The notes: generated from the sequence alone by a model not told the origin. A DNA stretch of 64,000 nucleotides from Alphaproteobacteria bacterium (GCA_964291675.2 OZ219866.1:1952001-2016000); one strand, 5' to 3'; shown: positions 31,131 to 64,000, counted from the first letter of the stretch. Made by a program: numbers and translations.

Positions 31131-31144
31131 CGTTGGGCCAAGGC

Positions 31145-37983: not shown

Positions 37984-38823
37984 ATGATTCGACTCAGGCG
38001 TGTAATTCACGGGTTGCTGCTGGCGGCGGCCGTCGCGGCACCGGCGACCGCGAAGGAGTGTCCCGACCCGTCGGCCCGCAGGACCGTCCACCTGGTCTAC
38101 GCGGTCTATCTCGGCGGGATCAATGCGGTCGACCTCAATATCGACCTCGCGCTCGGCTGCGACGGCTACCGGCTCGACCTGTCCAGCAAGGTCGAGGGCC
38201 TGATGCGCTACATCCTGCCCTGGTCCCTCCGCGTCCGCTCCGAGGGCCGGGTGCGGGAGGCGGGGCTGGTGCCGGAACGGGCCCACACCGAGAGTACGTG
38301 GCGCGGCAAGCGGCGCTGGACCACGCTCGAATTCCCGGGCGGCCGTCCGGTGATCGTGAGCGCCCAGCCCAGGCGCAAGCCCCCCGACGTGCCGCCCGAA
38401 AAGATGCAGGGCGCCATCGACATCGCAACCGGCGTGCTCAGCGCCGCGCGCGCGGTAACCCGGCCCGGGTCCTGCGCGGTCAGGCTGCCGGTGTTCGACG
38501 GCCGCAGGCGCTTCGACGCCGTCTTCGAGGCGCTCGGCGAGGGCGAGCTGCCGCGCTCCAGGCTCTCCGCCTATTCCGGCAAGGCCGAGGTGTGCGATCT
38601 CAGCATCGAGAACCTGCTCGGTCGCCGGAAGAAGACCGACTATGCGGGGCTGGCGAGCGGCGAAAGGACGATGACGTTCTGGTTCGCGCCGCTGTTCGAC
38701 GGCATCCACCCGCTGCCGGTGCGGATCCAGCAGGACACCGACCTCGGCGGGGCGATCGGGCATCTGACCAGCGCCAGAATCGACGGCGAGGGCGGGCAGC
38801 CGGCCTACGCCTTGCCGCCTTGA
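37984..38823 (+). CDS. Exported DUF3108-like protein
   Basis: Signal peptide, YAVYLGG, PVFDGRRRFD, PLPVRI. Confidence 0.75.
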   Translation: MIRLRRVIHGLLLAAAVAAPATAKECPDPSARRTVHLVYAVYLGGINAVDLNIDLALGCDGYRLDLSSKVEGLMRYILPWSLRVRSEGRVREAGLVPERAHTESTWRGKRRWTTLEFPGGRPVIVSAQPRRKPPDVPPEKMQGAIDIATGVLSAARAVTRPGSCAVRLPVFDGRRRFDAVFEALGEGELPRSRLSAYSGKAEVCDLSIENLLGRRKKTDYAGLASGERTMTFWFAPLFDGIHPLPVRIQQDTDLGGAIGHLTSARIDGEGGQPAYALPP

Positions 38824-46334: not shown

Positions 46335-48676
46335 GCGAAGCCGCGATCGGGCGTTCCATCGCGCGCCCCAACGCGCGGCGCGCCGCCTCCGGCCGCGGCC
46401 GTCACGTCGCCGATCTCGCATTCAGGCGGCTGGTCGATGTCGCCTTCGTCCGCTGCCCCTACGCCCATGCCCGGATCGTGTCGATCGACACGGGGGAGGC
46501 GGCGGCGCAGCCGGGCGTGGCGGCGGTGCTCACGGGGGCGGAACTCGCCGAGCGCACCCGGCCGTGGCTGGGCACGATGAAGAACGCGCCTTCTCTCCTC
46601 TCCGTTCCGCAATACGGCATGGCGGTCGATTGCGCGCGCTGGCAGGGCGAGCCCGTCGCCGCGGTCGCCGCCGAGGGCCGGGCGCGCGCCGAGGACGCGG
46701 CCGAGCGCGTCGCCGTCGTCTGGGAAGAGCTTGAGCCGGTTGCCGACATCGAGACCGCCCTCGACGACGGAGCCCCGATCCTCCACCCCTCGCTCGGCAC
46801 CAACCGGCTGTATGACCGCGTTGTCGACACCGGGGACGCGGCAGCCGCCTTCGCCGCCGCGGATGTCGTCGTCGAAGGGCAGTTCCGCTTCGGCCGGCAT
46901 ACCGGCGTGCCGCTGGAGGCCCGGGCGATCGTCGCGGAGTACGACCCGGGCGACCGCAGGCTCACCTTGCACTATGGCGGGCAGGCGCCGCACATGACGC
47001 AGATCCTGTTCGCCCGTCATCTCGGGCTGGAGGAACGCCAAGTCCGGGTGATCGCCTACGACGTCGGGGGCGGGTACGGCATCAAGAGCCATCACTACGG
47101 CGACGAGTTCACCGCCGCCGCGCTGGCGATGCTGCTCGCCCGCCCGGTGCGGTACTGGGCGGACCGGCTGGAATCCTTCGTCTCCGACATCCACGCGCGG
47201 GACCACGCGGTCCGCGGCCGGCTCGCGGTGGAGAAGGACGGCCGGATCGCGGCGCTGGAGATCGACGACCTGGTCGGTGCCGGCGCCTATTCGTCCTACC
47301 CGCGCACCAGCTCGGTCGAGGCCAACCAGGTCCTCAATGTCTCCGGCGGACCCTACGCGATAGCCAACTACCGGGCGCGCACCCGGGTCGTGTTCCAGAA
47401 CAAGGTGCCGATCTCGCAATATCGCGGGGTCGGCCATCCGATCGCGATCCTGACCGTGGAGGCCCTGATCGACCGCGCCGCCGCCGCGCTCGGCACCGAC
47501 CCGGCGGAGCTGCGGCGGCGGAACTTCGTGCCCGACGACGGCTATCCGGTAAAGGCCCCGTCCGGCGTCGGGCTCGACGACCTGTCGCACCAGGCCTGTC
47601 TCGCAAAGCTGCTGGAGCTGATGGACTACGACGCGCTCCGCGCCGACCGGGACGAGAAGCGCAGCCGGGGCGCGCTCTGCGGCATCGGGCTCGCCTCGTT
47701 CATCAAGGGCACCAACCCGGGGCCGCAGATCTACGGACCCGCGGGCGTGCCCATCTCGGCGCAGGACGGGTGCACCGTCAGGCTCGAGCCGTCCGGCGCG
47801 GTGACCTGCCTCGCCGGCGTGACCGAGCAGGGCCAGGGCACCGAGACCGTCCTCGCCCAGGTGGTCGCCCAGTCGGTCGGCGTGCCCTTCGAGGCGGTCA
47901 CCGTGATCACCGGCGACACCGATGCGGTGCCCTATGGCGGCGGCACCTACGGCTCGCGCGGCGGCGGAATCGGCGGCGAGTCGGCGAGGCGCGCGGGCGA
48001 GGCGCTGCGCGGCGAGATCCTCGATCTCGCAGGCGCGCTGCTCCAGGCCGAGCCCGGATCGCTCGCCTTGCGCGACGGCGCCGTGGTCGAGCGCGCCGGC
48101 GGCGCCCCGCGCATGACCCTCGCCGAGCTGGGCGATCTCGCCTTCTTCCGCTGCGGCGAGCTGCCCGACGGGGTCTATCCCTCGCTCACCCAGACCCGCC
48201 GCTTCCGGGTGCCGGAATACGTGTTCACCAACGGCGCCCACGGGGCCCGGATCGAGGTCGATCCCGAGACCGGGGAGGTCCGCATTCTCGGCTACTGGGC
48301 GGTCGAGGACGGCGGGCGGCTGATCAACCCCCTGCTCGCGGAGGAGCAGCTTCGCGGCGCCATCGTCCAGGGGCTCGGCGACGCGCTCTACGAGCACAGC
48401 CTGTACGACCGCGACGGCCAGCTTCTCAACGGCACCATGGTCGACTACCTGGTGCCGATGGCGGCCGAGATGCCCGATATCGTGCTCGCCCATGTCGAGA
48501 CCCCGACCTCGGTCTCCGGCCTCGGCGCCAAGGGGGTGGGCGAGTCCGGCACCGCCGCCGCGCCCGGCACGGTGTTCAACGCGGTGAACGACGCGCTGGC
48601 GCCGCTCGGCGCCGCCGTGGAGGCGATACCGATCACGCCCGAATCGGTCCTCGCCGCGCTCGGCCGCGCCCGGTGA
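46331..48676 (+). CDS. Xanthine dehydrogenase/CoxL-family molybdopterin subunit (second in tandem)
   Basis: VGGGYGIK, YRGVGHP, QGQG, GAKGVGE; ATGA overlap. Confidence 0.92.
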   Translation: MSEAAIGRSIARPNARRAASGRGRHVADLAFRRLVDVAFVRCPYAHARIVSIDTGEAAAQPGVAAVLTGAELAERTRPWLGTMKNAPSLLSVPQYGMAVDCARWQGEPVAAVAAEGRARAEDAAERVAVVWEELEPVADIETALDDGAPILHPSLGTNRLYDRVVDTGDAAAAFAAADVVVEGQFRFGRHTGVPLEARAIVAEYDPGDRRLTLHYGGQAPHMTQILFARHLGLEERQVRVIAYDVGGGYGIKSHHYGDEFTAAALAMLLARPVRYWADRLESFVSDIHARDHAVRGRLAVEKDGRIAALEIDDLVGAGAYSSYPRTSSVEANQVLNVSGGPYAIANYRARTRVVFQNKVPISQYRGVGHPIAILTVEALIDRAAAALGTDPAELRRRNFVPDDGYPVKAPSGVGLDDLSHQACLAKLLELMDYDALRADRDEKRSRGALCGIGLASFIKGTNPGPQIYGPAGVPISAQDGCTVRLEPSGAVTCLAGVTEQGQGTETVLAQVVAQSVGVPFEAVTVITGDTDAVPYGGGTYGSRGGGIGGESARRAGEALRGEILDLAGALLQAEPGSLALRDGAVVERAGGAPRMTLAELGDLAFFRCGELPDGVYPSLTQTRRFRVPEYVFTNGAHGARIEVDPETGEVRILGYWAVEDGGRLINPLLAEEQLRGAIVQGLGDALYEHSLYDRDGQLLNGTMVDYLVPMAAEMPDIVLAHVETPTSVSGLGAKGVGESGTAAAPGTVFNAVNDALAPLGAAVEAIPITPESVLAALGRAR

Positions 48677-51337: not shown

Positions 51338-53434
51338 CTACTGGTGGTGGTGCAGCACCTCCGAGTAGGTCGGGAACGGCCACGCGCGGCCGTCCACCAG
51401 GAGCTCCAGCCGGTCCGCCACGTCGCGCGCGGATTGCATGCACGGTTTCAGGGCCTCGTGCGCGTATGACGCGGCCCCTCCCGGATCGTCGTGCGGGAAG
51501 GCGTCGTACGCATCGGCGAGTCTTTCGGTTTCCGAAAGCAGCTCTTCGACGAGCGCGCGCTTCTTGTCGAACATCGGCGACTGGAACCCGGAGTCGCGGT
51601 CGGCGCGGGTGTCCTCGATGGCGACAGGGAGGATCTGGGTCCTGAGGATGCGCAGCAGCGCGCGCGCCTCGATGTGGAGCTCGGTGGCGTAGGCCTCCTG
51701 CAGGACGTTCTGACGCGCCACGAGCTCGTGCTCGTTGAGGATGCCGAGCTCGCCCATCAGCTTGACGTTCTTCTCCGCCGTCAGGGCCTCGTAGGCCTCC
51801 GGGCTGCTCCTGAGGTGGATCAGGCCGTGCTTCTCGGCGTGCTCGTAAAGAGCGTCGGAGTAGCCGTCGCCGCTGAACAGGGCGCCCTGGTTTTCCTGAA
51901 TGGTCTCGCGGATCACCTGATCGACGGGCTTGCCGGCGTCGACCTCGTCGCACATGTGCTTCAGGCTGTCCGCGATCGCCGCGTTCACCATGGTCAGCGG
52001 GAACGCGATATGCTGGTTGCCGCCCACGGCGCGGAACTCGAACCGGTTGCCGCACCACGGGAACGGCGCGGTGCGGTTGCGGTCCTCCAGATTGGCCCGC
52101 ACGTCGGCGACCGGGGCCACGATCTCGATCTCCTTGCGCTCGTTTCCGTAGCCCGCGAAGTCGCCGCCCTCGGCGACCGCCTTCACATGGGCTTCCAGGC
52201 GCTCGCCCAGATGCAGGGTGATGATCGCCGGCGGCGCCTCCTGGGCGCCGAGCCGGTGGTCGTTGCCGGCCGTCGACACGCCGCAGCGCAGCAGGTCGCC
52301 GTGCCGGTTGACCCCGCGCAGCAGGGCCGCGACGAAGGCGATGAAGCGCCGGTTCTCTTCCGCGGTCTCCCCCGGCACGAACAGGTTGGCGCCGGTGTCG
52401 GTGTTGAGCCCCCAGTTGTTGTGCTTGCCGGTGCCGTTGATGCCGGCGAAGGGCTTCTCGTGAAACAGGATGGTGAAGCCGTGGTCGAAGGCGAGGTCGC
52501 GAAGCACGTCCATGGCGAGCACGTTGGTATCCGCCGCGAGGTTGGCGAGGCCGAAGACCGGCGATATCTCGTGCTGCGCGGGGGCGACCTCGTTGTGGGT
52601 GCAATGGATCGAGATTCCGAGCTCCCACATCTTGTCGCGCGCCTCCGCCACGTAGCGGTTCACCCTGGGCGACAGCTTGGAGAAATAGTTGCCGTCCATC
52701 TCCTGGCCGCGCAGCGGCGCCGCGCCCAGCAGCGTGCGCCCCGCGGCCACCAGGTCGGGCCGCGCCAGGTACTTCTCCCGGTCGATCAGGAAGAACTCCT
52801 GCTCCCAGCCCACATTGCACACGACCTCCCTGGTCGAGCTGTCCCCGAGCAGCGAGAGCAGCCGCACGCTTTGCTCGTTGACCGCCATGTCGGCCCGCAA
52901 GAGCGGGGTCTTCTGGTCGAGGGCCTCGCCGTTCCAGGTCACGAAGGCGGACGGGATGTAAAGCGTCTGCCGGTAGACGAAGGGCGGCGATCCGGTGTCC
53001 CAGCCGATATAGGCCGCCGCCCGATGGGTCTCGCGCAGCCCGCCATTGGGGAAGGAGGAGCCGTCGGTCTCGGTCTGGAACAGCTCCGAGCCCGTCAGGT
53101 TGATGATCAGGCGATCGGTGGCGAAATCCACCCCGACGAAGGTTTCCAGCTTCTCGCCGTGGATCGCGCCCCGCATCGGCGAGAACCAGTGCGAATAGCC
53201 GATGCAGCCCTTCGACTGCGCCCATTCGCGAATCGACTTGGCCAGCGCGTTCGCGAAATCCCGATCCATCGGCACGCCCGTCGCGCGGCACTGGGCGAGC
53301 GCGTAGTAGACGTCCGGATCGACCAGCTTCTTCAGTATCGAGTCGTCCAGCACATTGCTGTTGATCATCGCCAGGGCCGGCGGGAGGGCTACCTCCTGGG
53401 TCGGTGCCTCGTGCGTGGAGTGCGTGATTGCCAT
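51338..53434 (-). CDS. glnN: Glutamine synthetase type III
   Basis: 698 aa, ETDGSSFPNGGLRETH, GWEQEFFL, HNEVAPAQHE, HEKPFAGINGTGKHNNW, HRLGAQEAPP, DRNRTAPF, NRFEFRAVG. Confidence 0.93.
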   Translation of the reverse strand: MAITHSTHEAPTQEVALPPALAMINSNVLDDSILKKLVDPDVYYALAQCRATGVPMDRDFANALAKSIREWAQSKGCIGYSHWFSPMRGAIHGEKLETFVGVDFATDRLIINLTGSELFQTETDGSSFPNGGLRETHRAAAYIGWDTGSPPFVYRQTLYIPSAFVTWNGEALDQKTPLLRADMAVNEQSVRLLSLLGDSSTREVVCNVGWEQEFFLIDREKYLARPDLVAAGRTLLGAAPLRGQEMDGNYFSKLSPRVNRYVAEARDKMWELGISIHCTHNEVAPAQHEISPVFGLANLAADTNVLAMDVLRDLAFDHGFTILFHEKPFAGINGTGKHNNWGLNTDTGANLFVPGETAEENRRFIAFVAALLRGVNRHGDLLRCGVSTAGNDHRLGAQEAPPAIITLHLGERLEAHVKAVAEGGDFAGYGNERKEIEIVAPVADVRANLEDRNRTAPFPWCGNRFEFRAVGGNQHIAFPLTMVNAAIADSLKHMCDEVDAGKPVDQVIRETIQENQGALFSGDGYSDALYEHAEKHGLIHLRSSPEAYEALTAEKNVKLMGELGILNEHELVARQNVLQEAYATELHIEARALLRILRTQILPVAIEDTRADRDSGFQSPMFDKKRALVEELLSETERLADAYDAFPHDDPGGAASYAHEALKPCMQSARDVADRLELLVDGRAWPFPTYSEVLHHHQ

Positions 53435-53681
53435 GACGGTCCTTCCGCGAGAGCCATTACCGGGAAGGGAAAGCTAATGCATGCGTGCGAGGTTCACCAA
53501 GAAAATCCGCGACCCGGAGCGGCGAAAACAAGATTGCAATTTATTTGACCTGTTCGGCGAAAATGGAAAACTATTGAGTACATGTGCGGCTCAGAATTCC
53601 GGCGCAAACGCCGCTGCGCGGGCTTGAAACAGGCGATCGCAACCCTGGGCTGTCTTTTTGGGAAGGTCTATAGAACACGCC

Positions 53682-54107
53682 GTGCTCCATTTTTCACTGA
53701 TCAATGACTTGCGAGAACTTGGCGTTGCCGCGGCGAAAGTCGACGCGTTCTGCGCCGAGCACGGCGTGTCGCGGGATATCGCATTCGCCGTCAACGTGTC
53801 GGTCGACGAGCTGCTGACCAACACCATCAGCTACGGTTTCGACGACGGCGAATCGCACCGAATCGAAATGACCGTCCGCATCGAGGACGACGTGCTGGTG
53901 ATCGAGCTGGTGGATGACGCCACGCCCTACGATCCGACCCGTGCGCCGCATCCCGACATCGACGCGCCGATCGAGCGGCGCCCCATAGGTGGGCTCGGCG
54001 TCCACTTCGTCCGCGAATTGATGGACGGCTTCAGCTATCGCCGCAGCGAGGGGCGCAATATCGTGACCCTGACCAAGCGGACGGGAGACCGTCCGGCGGA
54101 GGGGTAG
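53682..54107 (+). CDS. RsbW/SpoIIAB-like anti-sigma factor Ser kinase (HATPase_c_2)
   Basis: DELLTNTISYG, YDP, ERRPIGGLGVHFV, RNIVTLTK; start uncertain (TTG 53658 is an alternative). Confidence 0.9.
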   Translation: MLHFSLINDLRELGVAAAKVDAFCAEHGVSRDIAFAVNVSVDELLTNTISYGFDDGESHRIEMTVRIEDDVLVIELVDDATPYDPTRAPHPDIDAPIERRPIGGLGVHFVRELMDGFSYRRSEGRNIVTLTKRTGDRPAEG

Positions 54108-54115
54108 CCCGGCGC

Positions 54116-56680
54116 TCACACCTTGCCGTTGTAGCGCAACACGAGACAGGTGATGTCGTCCGACTGCTCGGCGTCGCCCACGAACTCGCCGACGGCCAGG
54201 GTGACGTTGCCGATCACCGTATCCACCGGCGCTCCCGGACCGATCGAAAGCGCGTTCTCGAGACGACTCTCGTCGAAGGTTTCGCCCTGAATGTTCATCG
54301 CCTCGGAAATGCCGTCGGTATAGAGAAACAGCGTATCGCCGACGCCGAGCGTCACCCGGTTCTCGTCGTATTCCAGCTCCGGCAAGACGCCGACGGCCAC
54401 GCCGCCGGTCAAGGGCAGTGTCTCGATGGCGCCGGTGTTTCGGATCAGGAAGGGCGCGTTGTGACCGGCATTCGCGTAGCTGAGGGTCCCCGTCTGCGGG
54501 TCCAGGATGCCGTAGAACAAGGTCACGAACAGGTCGTGCGGGTTCTCGGAGGAGATCCGGTCGTTGACCACGCGCATGCAGGCGCCGGCCTGGCCGATCT
54601 CCTGGGCGCTGGCGCGCATGACCGTCCGCGTGATCGCCATGAAGAACGCCGCAGCCACGCCCTTGCCGGAGACATCGGCGATCACCAGGCCGAGCCGGCC
54701 GTCCGGCAGGCTGAAATAGTCGTAGAAATCGCCAGCCATCTCGCGCGCCGGCGTCATCACCGCATCGCCCGAATAGGCGGTATCGGGCGGCAGGGTCTTG
54801 GGCAGGATCGCGTGTTGCAGGGAATGCGCGACCGCGAGCTCGTCTTCCATGCGCCGGTTGGCCTCGTCGAGGAGGGCATTCTTGTTCGCGAGGTCGAGCG
54901 TGCGCTCGGCGACCAGGGCCTCCAAATGCTCCCGCCGGGCCTGAACCTCGCGCGCCATCGTCTGGAAGGTGTGGATCAGCCGCCCCAGCTCGTCGCGCCG
55001 CTCGCGGTAGGGGTCGAGCGAATCGGGCTTGAAACTGCCCTGGTCCATTTCTCCCGCCGCCTGGGTCAGCGCGGTGACCGGCCGCGTGATGCGCCGAGCC
55101 GACATGACCGCGGTAACCGCGCCGATCAGAAACGCCGCCAGCGTGATCGCGAGTCCGAAATCGATATAGTCGCCCAGCAATTCGTCGAGATGGTCGCGCG
55201 GCATGTGGATCACCGCGACACCCGTGGCGACGCCGCCGCGATCCAGGATCGGCGCGGCGACGTGGAGCGCCCTGTCGCTGAGGAAGGATTCCGCGGTCCC
55301 CTGGACGGCCCGGCCCGCAAGCGACTTGTCGGCGGAACCGAAAACCGGTTGCTCCGCGCTGCGCAAGGCGCCGGCGGCGACGGCGGCGGTGACCTTGAGG
55401 GCTTCGTCGACGACCCAGATCGCTCTTATGCCCGGCTGGGCGGCCAGCGAGTCGAGCGCCGCGGCGAGGCCGATCGTATCGCGCAGGCCCGTCGTCTTGT
55501 CGGCAAGGCTGCCGACCAGGACCGACCTGCCGTGGCGCGAGCGAACCCCGATATAGCGCAGCGGCACCTCCAGACCGTCCCTGGGTACGGATCGGAACGA
55601 CACCGAGAAGCGCTTCCCCGAGATCAGGGTCTGGAGGACCGGGCTGTCCACATCCCGAAGCGACATGTCGACGCCGGAACGGCCGAGTCCCTCGATCGCG
55701 CGCACCGCCGGCGTTCCCGTGTCGTCGAGCACCCAGATATCGTCGACCGCGCTGTTCGCCGCGATTTCCGCCAGTTCGATCGCGAGCGCCCGATCGTCGT
55801 CCCTCAGAACATCCGCAAGATGGGCCACCGCTATGGCCTGCGCCTCGTTCTCGGCGACGATGACGCGGTCGATCTGGTCCGCGATCACGCCGACCCGGTT
55901 GGCCTCGCTGGCGATCAGCCCGGCCACCATCCTGGCCTGGTTCTCGGCCTGCTCGATCAGCGTGTTGCGCGCCAGCAATCCCAGCGCCACCGCCACGCTG
56001 AGAATGGCGATGCCCACCGATGCGGAGACGATCAGGATCAGATGCCGGGACAGGCTGATGCTGGCATCGCGGCGACGCACGTGGGCGAACCGCATGACCA
56101 GGGCGACGACGCCGGCAAAGGCGAGGAACCAGGCCATCGCATAGAGGTAGATCCAGAAAGAGAGCTGCGGCTGGCCGAGCGCGGCGATCACCGTGTCGAC
56201 CCGGAAGACCATTTCCGGGACACCGATAACCGAGGCGGTGGCCGAAGCCATCACGATGATCAGGAAGTAGTTGGTCCACGACGGCAGGAACAGGAGCGCC
56301 TCGGTGGTCTGGCCGCGCCTGAGATGCCGCAACGCGGCGAGCGCGTTGTCCGAGACGAACCCCGCGACCGCGATCGAAAGCGCGAGCGAGGCCTTGATCC
56401 ACACCGGCACGATGACCGTCGTGCCGAACAACACGAAACTCCCCGGGACCATATAGGCGAGGTAGAACAGCATGACGAAGGTCGGCGCGCTGGCGGCGAG
56501 CATCGTCAGCGCGCCGGCGCCCTGGCTCACGCGGCGCAGGCGGCCGCCGCGCAGTGCCGCCAGAGCCCCCCCGAGCACCGTGCCGATCGCCATCGCGACC
56601 AGCGAGACCAGCATGTTCCAGCCGAAACCGACCGCCAGATAGGGCGTCCAGGTAATCAGGACGTCGATGACATTGGGCAT
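54116..56680 (-). CDS. Fusion: amino-acid ABC permease + periplasmic sensor + HAMP + SpoIIE/PP2C phosphatase
   Basis: N-terminal HisM/GlnP-like permease (PYLAVGFGWNMLVS, ASVIGVPE); HAMP (RRITRPV...DELGRL); PP2C (AGDFYD, IADVSGKG, NAGHN, YTDG, QSDDIT) in one open frame of 854 aa. Confidence 0.88.
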   Translation of the reverse strand: MPNVIDVLITWTPYLAVGFGWNMLVSLVAMAIGTVLGGALAALRGGRLRRVSQGAGALTMLAASAPTFVMLFYLAYMVPGSFVLFGTTVIVPVWIKASLALSIAVAGFVSDNALAALRHLRRGQTTEALLFLPSWTNYFLIIVMASATASVIGVPEMVFRVDTVIAALGQPQLSFWIYLYAMAWFLAFAGVVALVMRFAHVRRRDASISLSRHLILIVSASVGIAILSVAVALGLLARNTLIEQAENQARMVAGLIASEANRVGVIADQIDRVIVAENEAQAIAVAHLADVLRDDDRALAIELAEIAANSAVDDIWVLDDTGTPAVRAIEGLGRSGVDMSLRDVDSPVLQTLISGKRFSVSFRSVPRDGLEVPLRYIGVRSRHGRSVLVGSLADKTTGLRDTIGLAAALDSLAAQPGIRAIWVVDEALKVTAAVAAGALRSAEQPVFGSADKSLAGRAVQGTAESFLSDRALHVAAPILDRGGVATGVAVIHMPRDHLDELLGDYIDFGLAITLAAFLIGAVTAVMSARRITRPVTALTQAAGEMDQGSFKPDSLDPYRERRDELGRLIHTFQTMAREVQARREHLEALVAERTLDLANKNALLDEANRRMEDELAVAHSLQHAILPKTLPPDTAYSGDAVMTPAREMAGDFYDYFSLPDGRLGLVIADVSGKGVAAAFFMAITRTVMRASAQEIGQAGACMRVVNDRISSENPHDLFVTLFYGILDPQTGTLSYANAGHNAPFLIRNTGAIETLPLTGGVAVGVLPELEYDENRVTLGVGDTLFLYTDGISEAMNIQGETFDESRLENALSIGPGAPVDTVIGNVTLAVGEFVGDAEQSDDITCLVLRYNGKV

Positions 56681-56682
56681 CG

Positions 56683-58311
56683 CTAGGCCCCGTGCGCCCT
56701 GCGTTCCCAGCTGCGGAGCGCCCACACCGTGGCGAAGACCAGCAGGAAGTAGCACAGCAGCAGCAGGTTCATCATCACGGCGTCATTGCCCTTTTCGGCG
56801 ATGATCGCCGTGCTCGCGTGTACCAGCTCCGGCAAGGCGAGCGTGCTCGCCATCCCGGTGGCCTTGACGATATTGACGGAATTGCCGGCCACGGCGGCCT
56901 GGCACAGCTCCAGCGCGCGGCGGAATTCGCGCCAGGTGAACCCCAGCTTGCCGCCGGGCTCGGCCGCCACGTCCGCGGCCAGGGAGAACGACACCGCGTT
57001 GCTGGCCGCGGCATAGAGCGACAGCACCGCGGCGGCGAGCGAGAACGCATCCAGCGTGAAGCCGTAGGCGAACAGGATGCCGCCGATCCCGAAGAAGAAG
57101 ACGTAGAGCTGAAGCAGCGGGGGCGTCATCCGCAGCACCGCGCAGAACGCTTGCAGCAGCGGCGCCACGACAACCGTCCGGCGATGCAGGACCCAGCCGA
57201 ACAGGGCGCCGAGGACGACGCTGCCCAGCACGGTCGCGACCGAGAGCGCGACGGTCAGGAACAGGCCATGCAGGAACACGCTCCGGTCGAGCGGGTCGTA
57301 GACCGGGCTGACATCGAGCCCCGTCGCCTCCTTGAACGCCATGGATATCCCCGAAATTCCGCCCAACTCCTCGCTGGTGATCAGCGCGCGCTCCCGGCAC
57401 TCCAAAGGCCAGTTGCCGGTCTCGTCGCGGCGGCATCGGAGTTCGCCCGATTCGTCGGTTTCCTTCCAGGTCTCGTGCGCCCGCCGCAGATAGGGCGAGG
57501 GGGGCAGGCTCCACGTCTTCTCCAGCGCCTGGAAAAACCCCTCGCGATGCCACGCGGCCACGGTGTCGCCGAACAGGCGGTCGAGTCGTCCTCCGGCCTC
57601 CTCCTTTGCGATGGCGATCGCCCAGGGCGCGACGAATCGCGTCGGCAGGGCCACGGTGTAACCGTCCCACTCCCCGCTCGCCAGGGCGCTGAGCAAGTTG
57701 ACCTCGTCGTACAGCCAGCCCACGCAGTGTCCGTTGCGCAAGGCGAGCGCGGCTTCCCGGGTGGAGTTGAGGGAAATCGTCTCGACCAGGAGGCGTTGCG
57801 CGGCCAGGCGGTTCCAGATCGAGCCCTGCACGCTGCACAGCGTCCGGCCGCGGAGGCCTTCCCAGGTCGAGATCCCCGAGTCTTCGCGCATCAGCACGTT
57901 GGCGCCGTCGCCGTAATACTGGGGCTCGATCATGTGCACCAGCCGGCGGCGGCTGCGGTTGTCGCCCAGCGTGGCGATAACGACGTCGATCTCGCCGCGC
58001 GCGAGCTTCTGCAGACGGTTGGCGCTGGTCACCGGTGTCAGCCGCAGCGCAACACCGATCGCGTCCGCCAGGCCGCGCGCGACATCGACGTCGTAGCCCA
58101 CCAGCCTGCCGGAATCGTTGCGCACGCCGAAGGGATGGTAGTCCGCCTTGACGCCGGCGATCAGGTGGCCCCGAGCCCGGATCTCGTCCAGCCGATCCGC
58201 CGTTGCCGGCGCCGCGACCGACAGCCAGGCGGCGCTCAGGACGACCAGTCGGGCGAGACGGAAGAACCGCCGGGGCGCGACATTCACAAACGAAAGACCG
58301 GCAGGTCTCAC
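56683..58311 (-). CDS. Fusion: family-3 amino-acid SBP + ABC permease
   Basis: DRLDEIRARG, GYDVD, VTSANRL; C-terminal permease with RMTPPLLQL, NIVKATGMAS, PEL. Confidence 0.88.
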   Translation of the reverse strand: MRPAGLSFVNVAPRRFFRLARLVVLSAAWLSVAAPATADRLDEIRARGHLIAGVKADYHPFGVRNDSGRLVGYDVDVARGLADAIGVALRLTPVTSANRLQKLARGEIDVVIATLGDNRSRRRLVHMIEPQYYGDGANVLMREDSGISTWEGLRGRTLCSVQGSIWNRLAAQRLLVETISLNSTREAALALRNGHCVGWLYDEVNLLSALASGEWDGYTVALPTRFVAPWAIAIAKEEAGGRLDRLFGDTVAAWHREGFFQALEKTWSLPPSPYLRRAHETWKETDESGELRCRRDETGNWPLECRERALITSEELGGISGISMAFKEATGLDVSPVYDPLDRSVFLHGLFLTVALSVATVLGSVVLGALFGWVLHRRTVVVAPLLQAFCAVLRMTPPLLQLYVFFFGIGGILFAYGFTLDAFSLAAAVLSLYAAASNAVSFSLAADVAAEPGGKLGFTWREFRRALELCQAAVAGNSVNIVKATGMASTLALPELVHASTAIIAEKGNDAVMMNLLLLCYFLLVFATVWALRSWERRAHGA

Positions 58312-59066
58312 GGCCGGGCCACGATCAGGAAACCGTAGCCGACCGCCACCGGGGCGAGCGCGCAGGCCAGATCGTCGAGCCAGCCCAGCAGCGGGTTGCC
58401 GACCACCGCGGTCTCCGGCAGCAGGCTTTCCGGCTCGACGCTCTCGATTCGGAAGCCGGCGGACGACAATTCATCGCGTGCCTCGGCGGGCGAGAACAGG
58501 TGATAGAACATCTCGATACTACCAGCCTCCGAACGGCGCGCGTACAAAACATCGCCGGGCTCCAGATCGCCGTCCCGCACCATCGGGGCCGCGGCGCGCT
58601 GCTCCGCGTGGAACCGGCGTCGCGCATTGGGCAGGCTGAGCACCAGAACGCCGTCCGGCTTGAGGATTTCCCGAATCGCGGCGAGCAGAGCCGCGCGCTC
58701 CTTCCGCCCCGCCACATGGGCGAGGACGCCGAATGCGAGCAGTGCGAGGTCGAACCCGCGTGGAAACGACTGGGCGAGAGCCGTCGCGTCGGCGTTGCGC
58801 ACCGAGAGGCGTCCGCCGCCGACGAAAGTCGCCAGACGCTCCGACAGCATGTGGCAGGCGGTCGGGCAGACGTCGTAGGCCATGCCCGTTGCGCTTGTGT
58901 GTTGCAAGAGGGGCAGGGTGTAGCGCCCCGTCCCGGCGCCGAAATCGACGAAGCGGCCCTCCGCCGGCATCAGGCGCAGCACCCTCCGCAGCGTGCGCCG
59001 ATTCGGGGCGGGATAGCGGCGGTCGTAGAGCCCCGACGCCAGATACTCATCGTAGCTGTGGGACAT
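58308..59066 (-). CDS. Class I SAM-dependent methyltransferase
   Basis: VDFGAGTGRY, LKPDG; GTGA overlap with the SBP-permease gene; start uncertain. Confidence 0.82.
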   Translation of the reverse strand: MSHSYDEYLASGLYDRRYPAPNRRTLRRVLRLMPAEGRFVDFGAGTGRYTLPLLQHTSATGMAYDVCPTACHMLSERLATFVGGGRLSVRNADATALAQSFPRGFDLALLAFGVLAHVAGRKERAALLAAIREILKPDGVLVLSLPNARRRFHAEQRAAAPMVRDGDLEPGDVLYARRSEAGSIEMFYHLFSPAEARDELSSAGFRIESVEPESLLPETAVVGNPLLGWLDDLACALAPVAVGYGFLIVARP

Positions 59067-59434
59067 ATCCGGCGTGGTTGCCTGGGGCTCGGCCACACCG
59101 GCGGCCACGCAATCCTTGATGCCGCTGGGTGAAATGTTGGCGTCTCCACTGGCCCCATCGAGATGCGGATGCATCTCGTCGAGATTGAAAATGCGGGCTG
59201 CGCCGCCCGATAGCGGTGAGCGGCGCTCAAATTCTCCCGATCGCCGATAAATTCTGCCCGGGTTCGAGATTGTCGATGCCTCCATTGTTGACAATTTTGG
59301 CCTCCGGTTCAAATAGTAAGTCCAGACGGCTCGACAATCGAAAACCGGCTGCGACCGTTTGTCGCAGAGGCGGTCGGTCCGGGCCGCGCCATGGGCCGAA
59401 TCCCCGACCGGCCGATCGAGAGGAGCAAGGCAAG

Positions 59435-60340
59435 GTGAAGCTGCGACGAGCGGGCCGGTTGAGCTTCCCGAGGGCGGCGGTCGCGCTGACCGGTGCGGTG
59501 CTGGCGACGGTCAGCTTCGCGGCGACGGCGGCGGAGAGCGTCCTGACCCGAATCGCCGAGGACGGAATGCTCCGCGCCGGCACCCGGGCCAGCGCCGCGC
59601 CCTTCGCCCAGAAATTGCCGACGGGAGAATTTCGGGGATTCTCCGTCGATCTTCTGCAGGATATCCGGGCTGCGGTGCAGCGCGAGGTGGGCCGCCCGGT
59701 GCGCATCGAGCTTCATGAAGTCACGCCGAGCGACCGTCTGCAGCGGGTCGCCCGGGGCGAGCTCGATATCGTCTGCGGCATCACCACGCCGACCTGGGAC
59801 AGGGAGGCGACCGTCGATTTCTCGCTACCGTTCTTCCGCGACGGTACCCGGGTGATGGTATACCGGCGCGGCGCCGGAGAGACCGTCGATGTCGCCAAGC
59901 TCAATATCGGCGTCGTCAAGGGCACCACGACCGTCGACGTTCTCAAGAACAACCTCCCGGGGACGCGGCTCAGCGAATTCCCCAACATGGCCGCGGCGAT
60001 GAGCGGGTTCGAGAAGGGCGAGGTCGACGGGGTCGCCAATGTCGGCGTCGTGCTGCTCGGTCTCGCCGAGCGCAGCGAGCCGCGGCGCAGCGTCGTGCTG
60101 CTGCCGAGGACCCGATCCCTGGCGACCGAGAGCCTCGCCTGCGTGCTGCCGCAGAACGACAGCCGCTGGCGGGATCTGGTCAACCGAACCCTGATCCGCA
60201 TGTTCGGCGACGTGCGGCAGTTCAGGGGACGCTACGAGGAAATCTACAATCGCTGGTTCGGGCGGGACGGCGCGCTGTTCTACCCGCTCGATCGCGCGAC
60301 CCGCGACTATCTCGCCGACGTGTCCATCTGGGCCAAGTAG
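59435..60340 (+). CDS. Amino-acid ABC substrate-binding protein (GltI-like, family 3)
   Basis: Signal peptide, GTRASAAPF, GFSVD, DIVCGITTPT, DFSLPFF, GTTT; GTG start after AGGAG. Confidence 0.88.
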   Translation: MKLRRAGRLSFPRAAVALTGAVLATVSFAATAAESVLTRIAEDGMLRAGTRASAAPFAQKLPTGEFRGFSVDLLQDIRAAVQREVGRPVRIELHEVTPSDRLQRVARGELDIVCGITTPTWDREATVDFSLPFFRDGTRVMVYRRGAGETVDVAKLNIGVVKGTTTVDVLKNNLPGTRLSEFPNMAAAMSGFEKGEVDGVANVGVVLLGLAERSEPRRSVVLLPRTRSLATESLACVLPQNDSRWRDLVNRTLIRMFGDVRQFRGRYEEIYNRWFGRDGALFYPLDRATRDYLADVSIWAK

Positions 60341-60539
60341 TCGCCGGATCGTCGGCGCACCCGCGGCGCGTCCCGACCGGCTCCGACGGCGCGGCGAACC
60401 CATCGAGGTTGATTGCCGCCCGGTTCGCGGCCTATAAGAATGTCATTCCCTGAATCGTAGTTTCTGTTGGCGTGACTCCCGAGAACGGCTGGATGGCTGC
60501 ACCGCGAGCGCCAATGCGAACCGGAGGGCATGCAATATC

Positions 60540-62027
60540 ATGTCGCACATCGCGAATTCGATCGGATTGACGGCTACCGAACGCAGGGCCGGGCGTGGGT
60601 CGACCCCGTCAGGCGCCGCGCGGTTCGATGCGGGACACCGCGACGGCGCTCGGGACACCGGCGTCTCGCCGGGATGGCGGCGCGCCGCCCCGCTCGGGCT
60701 CGCCGTCGCCGCCCTGCTTCTGCTCCCGGCGGACGCGCATGCGGCGGTGGCCGACGAGACGCAATTCGTCCTGAACAGCTTCTCGTTCCTGATCTGGGGC
60801 GCGCTGGTGATGTGGATGTGCGCCGGTTTCACCATGCTCGAATCGGGCTCGGTGCGGACCAAGAACGCCTCGGTCATCTGCCTCAAGAATATCGGCCTCT
60901 ACTCGATCGCCGGGCTGATGTTCTACCTCGTCGGCTACAACATCATGTATGTCGGGGTCCCCGAAGGCGGCTGGTTCGGCACGCTGACGCTGTTCTACGG
61001 CACCACCGGCGAAGAAAAGGCGCTGCTCGGCGGCGGCGGCGACGCGGCCAAGGCGGGCGCCGCGGTGGTCAAGAACGGCTATTCGACGATGTCCGACTGG
61101 TTCTTCCAGATGGTGTTCGTCGCCACCACCGCCTCGATCGTCTCCGGCACGCTGGCCGAGCGGGTGAAGCTCTGGTCCTTCCTGCTGTTCATCACCGTGC
61201 TCACGGCGATCATCTACCCGGTCATCGGGTCATGGACCTGGGGCGGCGGCTGGCTGTCGGCGATGGGCTTCCAGGACTTCGCCGGTTCGACGATCGTCCA
61301 CTCCACCGGCGGCTGGGCGGCGCTTGCCGGGGCGCTGGTGGTCGGCGCGCGGAAGAACAAGTTCCGCGCCGACGGCAGCGTGAAGGTCACCCCGCCATCC
61401 AACGTGCCCGCAGTGACGCTCGGCGTGTTCATCCTCTGGCTCGGCTGGTTCGGGTTCAACGGCGGCTCGCAGCTCGCGCTCGGCGGCGCCGCCGACGCGG
61501 TGGCGATCAGCAACATTCTCGCCAACACCAATCTCGCCGCGGCCGCGGGGGTGATCGCCGCGATGGCGCTGTCGCGTCCGGTTCTCGGGCGCGTCGATCT
61601 TCTCGCCAGCCTGAACGGCGCGATCGGCGGCCTGGTGGCGATCACCGCGGGGCCCGACATCGTCCAGCACTACTGGGCGGTGATAATCGGCGCGGTCGGC
61701 GGCTGCATCGTGGTCCTCGGGATCAAGCTGCTCGACCGGCTCAAGATCGACGACGTGGTCGCGGCGGTTCCGGCGCATCTGTTCGCCGGCGTGTGGGGCA
61801 CGCTCGCGGTGTGCATCGCCGCGGGCGGCGATATCGTTGCGCAGATCACCGGCATCCTGGCCATCGGGGCGTTCGTGTTTGCCGCCTCGTGGGTGGTATG
61901 GTGGGCGATCGATTCGACCATCGGCGCGCGCGTCACGCCGATAACGGAAGAGCTGGGGCAGGATGTCGCGGAGCTGGGCATCGAGGCCTATCCGGAATTC
62001 GTCGTCGTCCCCGACATGGACGACTGA
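60540..62027 (+). CDS. amtB: Ammonium transporter (Amt)
   Basis: FFQMVF, DFAGSTIVH, LWLGWFGFNGGS, KIDD, PAHL; start uncertain. Confidence 0.93.
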   Translation: MSHIANSIGLTATERRAGRGSTPSGAARFDAGHRDGARDTGVSPGWRRAAPLGLAVAALLLLPADAHAAVADETQFVLNSFSFLIWGALVMWMCAGFTMLESGSVRTKNASVICLKNIGLYSIAGLMFYLVGYNIMYVGVPEGGWFGTLTLFYGTTGEEKALLGGGGDAAKAGAAVVKNGYSTMSDWFFQMVFVATTASIVSGTLAERVKLWSFLLFITVLTAIIYPVIGSWTWGGGWLSAMGFQDFAGSTIVHSTGGWAALAGALVVGARKNKFRADGSVKVTPPSNVPAVTLGVFILWLGWFGFNGGSQLALGGAADAVAISNILANTNLAAAAGVIAAMALSRPVLGRVDLLASLNGAIGGLVAITAGPDIVQHYWAVIIGAVGGCIVVLGIKLLDRLKIDDVVAAVPAHLFAGVWGTLAVCIAAGGDIVAQITGILAIGAFVFAASWVVWWAIDSTIGARVTPITEELGQDVAELGIEAYPEFVVVPDMDD

Positions 62028-62128
62028 GGAATGGCTTGCCTGCCCGAGCGGCCCGCATTCGAGTACAATGGGGCGCCGCACCGGCCGAAGGCGTGCGTTC
62101 ATAGAAGCAGCCGCAGGACACGAAGACG

Positions 62129-62467
62129 ATGGATTTGACGACTGAACGAAGCGAAAACGTCGTGTGCGTGGACGTGAAGGGGCGAATCGACGGGTCCACC
62201 GCCGTCGCCTTCGAGGAGTCTGTGCGCAACGCGCTCGAGGAATCCGACCGCGCCATGATCATGGATTTCCGGGAGCTCGCCTATATCAGCAGCGCCGGGC
62301 TCCGGGTGATCCTGCTGACGGCGAAGTCGCTGCAGAGCCAGGACGCGAAGCTGGTGCTGTGCTCGCTTTCCGATCAGATTCGCGAAGTGTTCAAGATCAG
62401 CGGCTTCGACAAGCTTCTGCCGATTCACGAGACCAGGGAGGAGGCGCGCGAGTCGCTCGGCGCCTGA
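62129..62467 (+). CDS. STAS-domain anti-sigma-factor antagonist (RsbV/SpoIIAA-like)
   Basis: KGRID, YISSAGLR phosphoacceptor motif, EVFKISGF. Confidence 0.93.
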   Translation: MDLTTERSENVVCVDVKGRIDGSTAVAFEESVRNALEESDRAMIMDFRELAYISSAGLRVILLTAKSLQSQDAKLVLCSLSDQIREVFKISGFDKLLPIHETREEARESLGA

Positions 62468-62554
62468 GCCGCGCGCGCGTCCGACCGGCGGCTGCCCGAG
62501 CCGCGCCCCGCCCGGCCCGCCGGGCGCATCCCCCGTTGTCGGGAGGCACCGTAG

Positions 62555-63259
62555 ATGGACGGACGGAAGGTTGCGATCGTTACCGCCGGCGGCAGGGGGA
62601 TGGGGGAAGCGATCGCCCGGGCCCTCGCCGGGCGGGACCACGCGCTGGTCCTGATGTCGCCCGGCGGGTCGGCCGAGGCGCTGGCCGAAGAGCTTGGCGC
62701 GATCGGCGTGAACGGCTCGGTCACCCGGGCGGAGGACCTCGAAGCGGCGGTCGCGGCGGCGATGGATGCGCATGGCCGGGTCGACGCGGTGGCCAACAAT
62801 GCCGGCTTCCCGCCCAAGGGGGAGCTGCTCGACATCCCCGACGAGGACTGGCGCGACGGCCTCGACATGGTGCTGCTGAACGTCATCCGCATGGCGCGCC
62901 TGGTGACGCCGATCATGGTCGCGCAGGGCGGCGGCGCGATCGTCAACATATCCACCTACGCCGCCGTCGAGCCCAGCCCGGCCTATCCGGTCTCGGCCAC
63001 GTTCCGGGCCGGGCTCTCCGCCTTCACCAAGCTGTATGCGGACCGCTACGCCGCCGACGGCATCCGCATGAACAACATCCTGCCCGGCTTCATCGACACC
63101 CATGGGGTCGATGAAGGGGTGGCCGCGGGAATTCCCGCGCGGCGCTACGGAACCCCGGAAGAGGTGGGCGAGACGGCGGCCTTCCTGCTGTCGGACGGCG
63201 CCGGCTACATCACCGGCCAGAACCTCCGCATCGACGGCGGGCTCACCCGCTCGGTTTAG
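62555..63259 (+). CDS. SDR oxidoreductase
   Basis: TAGGRGMG, NNAG, YITGQNLRIDGG. Confidence 0.9.
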   Translation: MDGRKVAIVTAGGRGMGEAIARALAGRDHALVLMSPGGSAEALAEELGAIGVNGSVTRAEDLEAAVAAAMDAHGRVDAVANNAGFPPKGELLDIPDEDWRDGLDMVLLNVIRMARLVTPIMVAQGGGAIVNISTYAAVEPSPAYPVSATFRAGLSAFTKLYADRYAADGIRMNNILPGFIDTHGVDEGVAAGIPARRYGTPEEVGETAAFLLSDGAGYITGQNLRIDGGLTRSV

Positions 63260-63269
63260 CGCCGCCCTC

Positions 63270-64000
63270 TCAGGGGTGCAGCGAGATGCAGATCGCCTCC
63301 TCGCCCGGGATCTCCCCGCCGAGCATCCGGATCGCGCGCTCGGCGTCCTCCAGCTTCATCTCGTGGGTGTGCATCGGCGCCAGTCTTTCCAGGTTGCGGG
63401 CGAGCAGGTCGATGCCGGCGCGGTACATGTCGGCGCCCTGGGTGAACACCGCCTTCAGCGTGATCTCCTTGTAGACCATGCGGTCGGTATCGAGCGTCGC
63501 CACGCTGTTGCCGCCCTTGACCCCGGCGACGACGATGGTCCCGCCCGCGCGCACGACCTCGACGGCGTGACCGATGACCGCGGTGTCCGCCGGCACCACG
63601 TCGACCGCGATGTCGACGCCCCGCCCGCCGGTGATCTCCATGACCCGGGCGACGGTGTCCTCCTCGTCGGCGACGATGGTGTGGGTGGCGCCGAAGGCGC
63701 GCGCGAGGTCCAGCTTGAAGGCGTCGCGCGCGAGCCCGGTGACGACGATCTCGGCAACCCCGGCGGCCTTGAGCGCGATCACCGAGGCGAGCCCGCGCTG
63801 CCCGCACCCCATCACCAGCACGGTGTCGGAGAAGCTCGCCCCGGGCACCGCGACCGCCCAGCGGATGCCGGCGGCGAGCGCCTGGTACATCGTCGCCATC
63901 TCGTCGGGCACAAGGTCGGGCAGCTTGTGCATCAGGGTGCGCTCGTGCAGGTGGATGTACTCGCCGTAGCCGCCCCACAGCCCGTGACCGATCGTGGTCG
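63270..64000 (-). CDS. Zinc-binding (MDR) alcohol dehydrogenase, 5' end outside the window
   Basis: LWGGYGEY, VMGCGQRG, GGRGVD; frame open to the window edge. Confidence 0.85.
   Translation of the reverse strand, partial: TTIGHGLWGGYGEYIHLHERTLMHKLPDLVPDEMATMYQALAAGIRWAVAVPGASFSDTVLVMGCGQRGLASVIALKAAGVAEIVVTGLARDAFKLDLARAFGATHTIVADEEDTVARVMEITGGRGVDIAVDVVPADTAVIGHAVEVVRAGGTIVVAGVKGGNSVATLDTDRMVYKEITLKAVFTQGADMYRAGIDLLARNLERLAPMHTHEMKLEDAERAIRMLGGEIPGEEAICISLHP

Follow-up and report, generated by a model that had tools for sequence, protein, structure and literature searches.

How does a membrane domain resembling half of an amino-acid importer come to be joined to a signalling phosphatase, in a locus with no ATPase to drive it? 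The question is raised by positions 53,682 to 62,467 of a 64,000-nucleotide stretch of an Alphaproteobacteria bacterium genome (GCA_964291675.2 OZ219866.1:1952001-2016000; this whole stretch is hereafter the window). An initial annotation, made from the sequence alone, read the locus as an ATP-binding cassette (ABC) transporter repurposed as a receptor for a partner-switching cascade: an operon of a methyltransferase gene, a gene for a solute-binding protein (SBP) fused to a permease and a gene for a permease-sensor-HAMP-SpoIIE fusion, converging on an RsbW-like kinase gene and diverging from SBP, amt and STAS genes. Each gene it named was detected by Pfam at the locus, in the described arrangement and with coupled starts in the operon. 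The repurposing of an ABC importer without its ATPase as the input of a partner switch was supported by the loss of the EAA loops from both membrane domains, the lack of a spare polar amino-acid transport (PAAT) ATPase, a gene set kept in 16 of 16 related loci, and independent fusions to PP2C, RsbW and cyclase proteins. We put at about 0.6 the probability that the module is a transporter-derived, ATPase-less co-receptor feeding the only SpoIIE-type phosphatase of the genome.

The features that carry the argument are given below in window coordinates, with their basis in brackets; TMD and TM stand for transmembrane domain and transmembrane, aa for amino acids and SAM for S-adenosylmethionine.

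54116..56680, minus strand: TMD2::sensor-PP2C fusion, 854 aa (Pfam, NCBIfam, homologue lengths, TM scan)
56051..56680, minus strand: TMD2, a five-TM domain derived from a polar-amino-acid ABC permease (NCBIfam, alignment, trees, TM scan)
56276..56320, minus strand: remnant of the EAA coupling loop of TMD2, RRGQTTEALLFLPSW (alignment; about 20 residues fewer than canonical permeases)
56042..56095, minus strand: joint between TMD2 and sensor (in split relatives one gene stops and the next starts at this place)
55985-56041 and 55103-55159, minus strand: TM helices of the sensor (TM scan)
55160..55984, minus strand: periplasmic domain between these helices, probably Cache/PDC-like (TM scan)
54941..55099, minus strand: HAMP domain (Pfam HAMP 1.2e-9, residues 553-605 of the 879-aa reading frame)
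54131..54706, minus strand: SpoIIE/PP2C phosphatase domain (Pfam SpoIIE, PF07228, 6.7e-49)
56683..58311, minus strand: SBP1::TMD1 fusion, 542 aa (Pfam, NCBIfam, alignment)
57511-58164, minus strand: SBP_bac_3 domain of SBP1::TMD1 (Pfam 2.6e-21)
56686-57309, minus strand: TMD1, the loop-less permease domain of SBP1::TMD1 (NCBIfam, alignment)
56890..56967, minus strand: replaced EAA-loop region of TMD1, AAEPGGKLGFTWREFRRALELCQAAV (alignment)
58308..59066, minus strand: class I SAM methyltransferase, 252 aa, first gene of the operon (Pfam; motif I DFGAGTGRY)
59435..60340, plus strand: SBP2, a free periplasmic SBP_bac_3 protein (Pfam 6.2e-21; reading frame opens at 59216)
53658..54107, plus strand: RsbW-like HATPase_c_2 serine kinase/anti-sigma-type protein (149-aa reading frame; Pfam HATPase_c_2, PF13581, 1.2e-24)
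62129..62467, plus strand: STAS anti-sigma-antagonist-type protein, 112 aa (Pfam STAS 3.2e-22; TIGR00377 9.1e-26, above its cut-off)

The open reading frame (ORF) of the fusion protein spans 54116-56755 on the minus strand (879 aa), and we placed its start at the ATG at 56680 because homologues are 853-855 aa long. The protein runs from the loop-less permease domain TMD2 through a TM helix, a periplasmic Cache-like domain of about 275 residues and another TM helix to HAMP, a further helix and SpoIIE/PP2C; the TM scan gave five TM segments, a sixth, about 275 periplasmic residues, a seventh TM segment and HAMP. SBP1::TMD1 comprises a signal peptide, the SBP_bac_3 domain, a cysteine-rich linker and a loop-less permease domain. 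Translational coupling links the three minus-strand genes: the stop of the methyltransferase gene overlaps the SBP1::TMD1 start (GTGA), and the SBP1::TMD1 stop lies 2 nucleotides ahead of the ATG of the fusion protein. The RsbW-like gene converges on the phosphatase gene across a gap of 8 nucleotides. The methyltransferase start was set at 59066 (252 aa; ORF 58308-59312) because N-termini are conserved (MSxSYDxY), and the divergent SBP2 gene most likely starts near 59435, where the predicted N-terminus resembles a signal peptide.

The two membrane domains had been called permeases, and this held for their homology but not for their recognition by the expected family. Pfam BPD_transp_1 (PF00528) matched neither protein even at E<=10, and in precomputed Pfam annotation the homologues carry HAMP and/or SpoIIE or SBP_bac_3 at most, a few carry none, and BPD_transp_1 never appears. 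The NCBIfam model for a cystine ABC permease matched both proteins (3.1e-6 over residues 26-151 of the fusion protein, 3e-8 over residues 346-529 of the SBP protein), and TIGR01726 gave 20.4 and 35.7 bits for the two against a cut-off of 42.2. When set against canonical permeases from this genome and from relatives, the domains align along five TM segments, and the homology is clear. Judged by these alignments and by the trees described below, which secure what the profiles recognise weakly, both TMDs are homologous to PAAT permeases (His/Glu/Gln/Arg/opine). Because the membrane domains fall below the Pfam threshold, the permease part is invisible in domain-architecture searches, which return ‘HAMP + SpoIIE’ or ‘SBP_bac_3’ only; this is a blind spot of such searches. 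The nearest solved structures to the SBPs are amino-acid binding proteins (for SBP2, binders of Gln, Arg, Glu or Asp), and the SBP domain is conserved, with many invariant columns within residues 53-305 in 50 sequences.

In canonical ABC importers the cytoplasmic EAA loop docks the ATPase. Where TMD2 of canonical relatives reads ‘GQWExAExLAF..(18)..ILPQ’, the window TMD2 aligns as ‘RRGQ--TTEAL’ followed directly by ‘LFLPSW’; TMD2 of this clade is short by 2+18 residues compared with canonical and ATPase-bearing relatives and has no EAA motif. In TMD1 the canonical ‘EAAEALGY...LPLA’ is replaced by the stretch listed above, about nine residues shorter and without EAA or LP motif. Canonical and ATPase-bearing relatives retain the EAA loops in both TMDs.

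The absence of an ABC ATPase gene from the window was confirmed: none of the 103 ABC_tran matches of the genome lies inside it (C2:1952001-2016000), the nearest being at C2:1916774 and C2:2033647. Five canonical permease pairs of the genome score above the TIGR01726 cut-off, each adjoining a PAAT ATPase, and these five ATPases are 47-55% identical to one another, with the next best ATPase at <=41%. Because the five form an identity group of their own and each stands beside a canonical pair, the genome has no sixth, orphan PAAT ATPase. The genome is 93.7% complete with 6.7% contamination, and for this incompleteness we extended the count to module-bearing relatives: PAAT ATPases number one in G210 (closed), one in G048 (closed) and two in G224 (99% complete), all by canonical pairs and none by the module.

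Several ATPase genes near related loci were considered as the motor of the module and rejected. The 360-380-aa ATPases near L012/L013 and L102 have ABC ATPases outside the five PAAT ones as their best matches in the genome, and that of L102 adjoins its own BPD_transp_1 permeases. The ABC ATPase of L101/L016, which by its motifs we take to be LptB-like, is 74% identical to a gene elsewhere in the window's genome, and the ATPase-like genes of L105 belong to peptidase-C39 exporters.

An assembly error at the fusion joint is ruled out. In two public runs, which belong to two studies and one of which may be the source sample, contigs cross the joint (56000-56200) without difference (X1 record 3 covers 55232-56483; X2 record 10 covers 54664-56483). 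Synteny in other genomes was equally consistent, the core of SBP2 divergent from methyltransferase-SBP::TMD-TMD-sensorPP2C being present in all 16 full-length related loci. The initial annotation had allowed that homologues might always be split; the TMD2-sensor frame is open in 12 of the 16 loci and interrupted in four (L012, L013, L014 and L016), where the break in every case comes directly behind the final permease helix, in L014 with a GTGA overlap. The protein database holds 22 clusters of 853-855 aa at 69-91% identity and about 62 clusters of 641-689 aa without the permease part. Across ten fused genes (45 pairs), the median ratio of nonsynonymous to synonymous substitution (dN/dS) was 0.18 for TMD2, 0.19 for the periplasmic part, 0.11 for HAMP-helix and 0.13 for PP2C; because TMD2 stands at 0.18, the permease part is maintained and not decaying. 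RsbW lies downstream in 12 of the 16 loci, STAS within the locus in 10, Amt next to SBP2 in nine and the type III glutamine synthetase (GSIII) beside RsbW in seven; in L102 amt lies downstream of the phosphatase. The loci L012 and L013 are near-identical and come from metagenome-assembled genomes (MAGs) labelled Anaerolineae and Alphaproteobacteria, and one of these bins probably holds a misplaced contig.

The history of the module was traced by searching the SBP::TMD protein against 401 alphaproteobacterial genomes; 20 loci were taken and all annotated by tblastn, and the neighbours of 10 of them were Pfam-scanned (114 ORFs). Canonical relatives (30-35% identity) form SBP(::)TMD-TMD-ATPase operons with intact loops. 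Group B (38-42%; G315, G178, G163) keeps the loops and reaches BPD_transp_1, and each member has a module ATPase bearing Walker A, signature and Walker B motifs. In G315 and G178 an operon STAS-sensorPP2C-methyltransferase-ATPase-RsbW adjoins the SBP-SBP::TMD-TMD genes, and in G163 the order is methyltransferase-SBP::TMD-TMD-ATPase-Ser/Thr kinase (L106, 1-7500). The G163 kinase is a Hanks-type Ser/Thr protein kinase of 952 aa, found where the PP2C/RsbW/STAS set would otherwise stand. Group A (>=50%; the window, L001-L016, G048, G224) is without loops and without ATPase, and so is group C (25-29%; five genomes), in which a small methyltransferase lies upstream in 5/5 loci and a dCache adenylate cyclase upstream of the methyltransferase in 4/5. 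The possibility, raised at the outset, that a cognate ATPase co-occurs was thus borne out for the distant relatives of group B and for none of this clade; neither it nor the split frame of some homologues overturns the receptor reading.

Groups A and C form one clade (99/100 in the TMD1 tree; 100 by the SH-like approximate likelihood-ratio test in the TMD2 tree) on long stems (1.23 and 1.09), nested in a clade with B (98/95 for TMD1; 97 for TMD2) inside the canonical importers. The TMD1 tree was obtained by a careful search and the TMD2 tree by a quick one, with loop columns kept and gaps treated as missing data. In the 38-42% relatives the same phosphatase, kinase, STAS and methyltransferase genes already accompany an importer that has its ATPase and EAA loops, so the tie to signalling predates the loss of the motor. 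The simplest history would be that the importer was first linked to the switch and the methyltransferase, and then lost ATPase and loops once.

Loop-less TMD2 domains have joined signalling proteins more than once. In G224, an RsbW-like HATPase_c_2 kinase continues the reading frame of TMD2 (L103:10906-12057, 384 aa), and the sensor-PP2C gene comes directly after this fusion. A loop-less TMD2 profile searched against 1.84 billion representatives gave 2385 matches at E<=0.001 and 74 at E<=1e-30; among the best 150 of these 2385 clusters, 115 are loop-less, 14 have the loop, 20 do not cover the site and one is ambiguous. Fusion partners include a PP2C sensor (P0010), RsbW-type kinases (P0226, P0238) and a dCache-HAMP-cyclase (P0304). 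Loop-less TMD2 is also fused C-terminally to an NMT1_3 (TAXI-like) binding-protein domain (P0247, P0249, P0254, P0277, P0328) or to SBP_bac_3 (P0233).

The methyltransferase follows the module closely. Its profile was present in eight of the 401 Alphaproteobacteria, seven of which are four group A and three group B genomes, that is, all module genomes of these groups in the sample. The eighth, G056, holds a more distant copy (L122:3915-9424) in a row with PrpD/MmgE, an orphan SBP_bac_3 and HAMP-MCP, without a TMD pair. The SAM motif is intact and many residues are invariant. Pfam returned only the generic Methyltransf_23/12/25/11/31 families and did not match a CheR domain, and the best solved structural relatives were at E about 0.002, none of them close. 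The group C methyltransferase aligns with that of the window in the SAM-binding core only (hhalign probability 70%, 82 columns), which does not show common origin. Complex prediction of the methyltransferase with TMD1+TMD2 scored 0.00 and speaks neither for nor against binding. In Bacillus cereus the orphan methyltransferase RsbM, whose gene accompanies that of the sensor RsbK, methylates RsbK and tunes a partner-switching pathway through PP2C (PMC4574943). We take that pair, with no assignment to its family, as a precedent for a sensor-methylating methyltransferase upstream of a partner switch.

The output side has the phosphatase, kinase and STAS parts of a partner switch. The PP2C motifs GDFYD, DVSGKG, TDG and DDIT, whose aspartates presumably bind metal, are nearly invariant in 66 sequences, and the ISSAG serine of the STAS protein lies at what we take to be the usual phosphorylation position. 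NCBIfam RsbW matched the RsbW-like protein at 4.7e-9, the RsbW equivalog models staying below their cut-offs. The fusion protein is the sole SpoIIE match in the genome, beside two small RsbW-like kinases and four STAS proteins, and as the sole phosphatase of this type it would carry the entire partner-switching network. For the other STAS genes the neighbours are an MMPL transporter and a GPP34-domain gene, or STAS is the C-terminal half of a protein of 270 aa. At the first of these (L125:1650-4533; C2, about 1164.6-1167.5 kb) the gene for the MMPL-family membrane protein precedes one for a STAS protein of 148 aa, placing STAS by a transporter as in the amt-STAS pair of the window. A GPP34 (Golgi phosphoprotein 3-like) gene lies directly upstream of another STAS in the window's genome (L126:2995-3912; C2, about 1198.5-1199.4 kb), and one lies between sensor-PP2C and amt in G048 (L102:13914-14579). 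It is possible that the GPP34 protein is a further component of the switch.

We propose that the receptor descends from a PAAT type I ABC importer whose two membrane domains, the binding-protein-tethered TMD1 and the sensor-fused TMD2, would still pair as an importer-like heterodimer. Because the ATPase and the cytoplasmic coupling loops are lost, such a complex could not be driven by ATP. The pair would give the tethered SBP, and probably the free SBP too, a place to dock at the membrane, and would be hard-wired by gene fusion to the TM-Cache-like-TM-HAMP-PP2C phosphatase. Ligand bound in the periplasm, in all likelihood a polar amino acid, would shift the TMD and sensor helices, HAMP would relay the change to the PP2C domain, and PP2C would set the phosphorylation state of STAS against the RsbW-like kinase. 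The methyltransferase would be a dedicated cytoplasmic accessory whose methylation target, at a guess, is some cytoplasmic part of the receptor, as RsbK is for RsbM. A nitrogen or amino-acid signal is plausible for the module because Amt and GSIII are neighbours and the SBPs resemble binders of Gln, Arg, Glu or Asp.

Several points weigh against this proposal. Each step of the signal flow is one that we infer rather than observe, from the pairing of the TMDs, the ligand and the direction of control to the target of the methyltransferase and the output. The association with switch genes alone does not mean that transport was lost, as G315 and G178 keep ATPase and loops with the same genes. In G224 the module methyltransferase is found on a separate contig, with a STAS gene about 2 kb away, and the absence of the ATPase leans partly on closed relatives of an incomplete genome. 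Neither a sigma factor nor any other target turned up beside RsbW/STAS among the 17 neighbouring genes of the window or next to the other STAS genes. RNA run X20 gave short pieces only, with three differences each, which come from a relative, may contain DNA and are not evidence of transcription. Finally, the periplasmic Cache-like domain of the sensor could itself be the real ligand site, leaving another role to SBP and TMDs.

This last point leads to the alternative that survives best, which we nevertheless consider unlikely: the Cache-like domain binds the signal, and the TMD pair with its SBPs is a scaffold that anchors, localises or stabilises the sensor without relaying ligand information. 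The split form (TM-periplasmic-TM-HAMP-PP2C, 641-689 aa) is indeed a complete and ordinary sensor architecture. The nearest Atlas clusters of the periplasmic part are Cache families (sCache_3_3, dCache_1 and dCache_3 at 0.91-0.94, a lead only), Pfam sCache_3_2 reached E 1.7 only, and the cyclase of the sister clade has Pfam dCache_1. However, the SBP domains are intact and conserved, and a second, free SBP is present in 16/16 loci, whereas a mere anchor needs no two binding proteins; in G224, moreover, the fusion partner of TMD2 is a cytoplasmic kinase without a Cache domain.

That the module still transports without ATP, as a facilitator or ion-coupled carrier, with the methyltransferase modifying the imported compound and the phosphatase monitoring flux as in trigger transporters, seems improbable. 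Purifying selection on the membrane domains would suit it, as would the methyltransferase, which was already linked to the ATPase-bearing module and fits an enzyme acting on a transported compound, and the Amt and GSIII neighbours suggest nitrogen metabolism. Yet transport in the absence of the ATPase is not known to us for any TMD pair of a type I ABC importer, the long stems that follow the loss in both trees indicate a change of function, and the fusions join signalling domains and not enzymes. Still less credible is a functional importer driven by an ATPase on loan from a different polar-amino-acid system. ATPase sharing is known from other ABC families and the genome holds five PAAT ATPases, but both TMDs are without the EAA loop that all canonical and ATPase-bearing relatives keep, and in two closed genomes the single PAAT ATPase adjoins its own canonical permease pair. 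An artefact or decaying relic (mis-assembly, lone stop-codon loss, pseudogene), to which the separate permease and phosphatase genes of the four split loci and the 641-689-aa clusters might have pointed, is refuted by the frame open in 12 loci of different species, the 22 clusters of fused length, the contigs across the joint and the TMD2 dN/dS.

The proposed co-receptor can be set beside several kinds of known system. PAAT type I importers include HisQMP2/HisJ, Art(QN)2 and GlnPQ, the last with binding domains fused to the permease. The module shares with them two homologous five-TM domains, SBP_bac_3 proteins and an SBP joined to the N-terminal end of one permease; it differs in having no ATPase, in EAA loops that are deleted or replaced, in not reaching BPD_transp_1, in the fusion of a permease to a signalling protein and in its dedicated methyltransferase. 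Membrane-bound PP2C sensors of RsbU/RsbV/RsbW-type switching are known as SiaA of Pseudomonas and RsbU of Chlamydia. The TM-periplasmic-TM-HAMP-PP2C order, the RsbW-like kinase and the STAS protein are common to these systems and the module, and SiaA is the best NCBIfam match to the fusion protein (1.3e-30 over residues 535-875, far below the cut-off). Unlike them, the module has its input wired to the relic of an ABC importer, no sigma factor nearby, and its STAS gene behind amt. In the SBP-dependent sensors LuxP-LuxQ, TorT-TorS, ChvE-VirA and MBP-Tar, the SBP docks directly on the periplasmic domain of the sensor. There too a periplasmic binding protein reports the ligand to a membrane sensor, but the module retains importer-type membrane domains in the complex.

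Transporter-type sensors include UhpC-UhpB and yeast Ssy1/Snf3. Transporter-linked sensors are also reported in CbrA and CrbS (SLC5 fused to a histidine kinase), BceAB-BceS and DctA-DcuS (PMC7096432, PMC5715377, PMC3023708, PMC5703999). In all of these, as in the module, a transporter or its homologue acts as or with the sensing part, reportedly within one polypeptide in CbrA and CrbS. The module stands apart as an ABC TMD pair without an energising subunit, with PP2C and not a histidine kinase as output; BceAB reportedly keeps its ATPase, and the SLC5 domain of CbrA is a secondary carrier. RsbK is a hybrid histidine kinase without a transporter part, unlike the sensor here (PMC4574943). The initial annotation knew of no described system with this architecture, and our literature search likewise found nothing on a permease-PP2C fusion or an ATPase-less ABC importer as sensor in the searchable literature, most subscription journals and supplements lying outside its coverage.

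What defines ABC importers is the coupling of TMDs to an ATPase; in this clade ATPase and coupling loops are both gone, and still the module is under selection and fused to signalling enzymes. If the proposal is true, the clade would be a clear example, in bacteria, of a primary transporter becoming a receptor. The stages are represented among living relatives: the full importer, the ATPase-bearing importer with phosphatase, kinase, STAS and methyltransferase genes, the motorless module, and the fused receptor. Because these intermediates survive, the transition from transporter to receptor is directly testable. A tentative extension, possible although we doubt it in its full form, is that loop-less, ATPase-less TMD pairs with a tethered SBP and a dedicated methyltransferase are a widespread and undescribed receptor class with PP2C, RsbW kinase or adenylate cyclase as outputs. 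The methyltransferase would set the gain as CheR or RsbM does, and the fusion protein would here be the sole phosphatase input to all STAS proteins, linking external amino acids to ammonium uptake and nitrogen assimilation.

The neighbouring nitrogen genes of the module are the following.

60540..62027, plus strand: Amt ammonium transporter (Pfam 3.1e-93)
51338..53434, minus strand: type III glutamine synthetase, GSIII (Pfam GSIII_N 1.9e-46)

Within amt (60728-61618) the summed contig depth rose 100-fold over the neighbouring sequence in three metagenome runs, with many variant letters; the peak is conserved amt sequence of other organisms and no copy-number signal. An Rfam scan of 53000-63500 gave nothing at E<=0.1, and no riboswitch in the divergent intergenic region. 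The sequence is G+C-rich (about 0.62-0.73 over 48-64 kb), and close homologues are labelled Defluviicoccus or Rhodospirillales MAG. Sponge metagenome runs showed small shares, giving nothing firm on habitat. About 16 kb from the module the window carries a DUF3108 gene (37984-38823), and DUF3108 also directly adjoins the module in G315 and G178 (L104:11269-12117; L105:7872-8672). Elsewhere the window contains three genes for molybdenum hydroxylase large subunits of the xanthine dehydrogenase family (30242-33577, 43968-46334 and 46331-48676), two of them adjacent.

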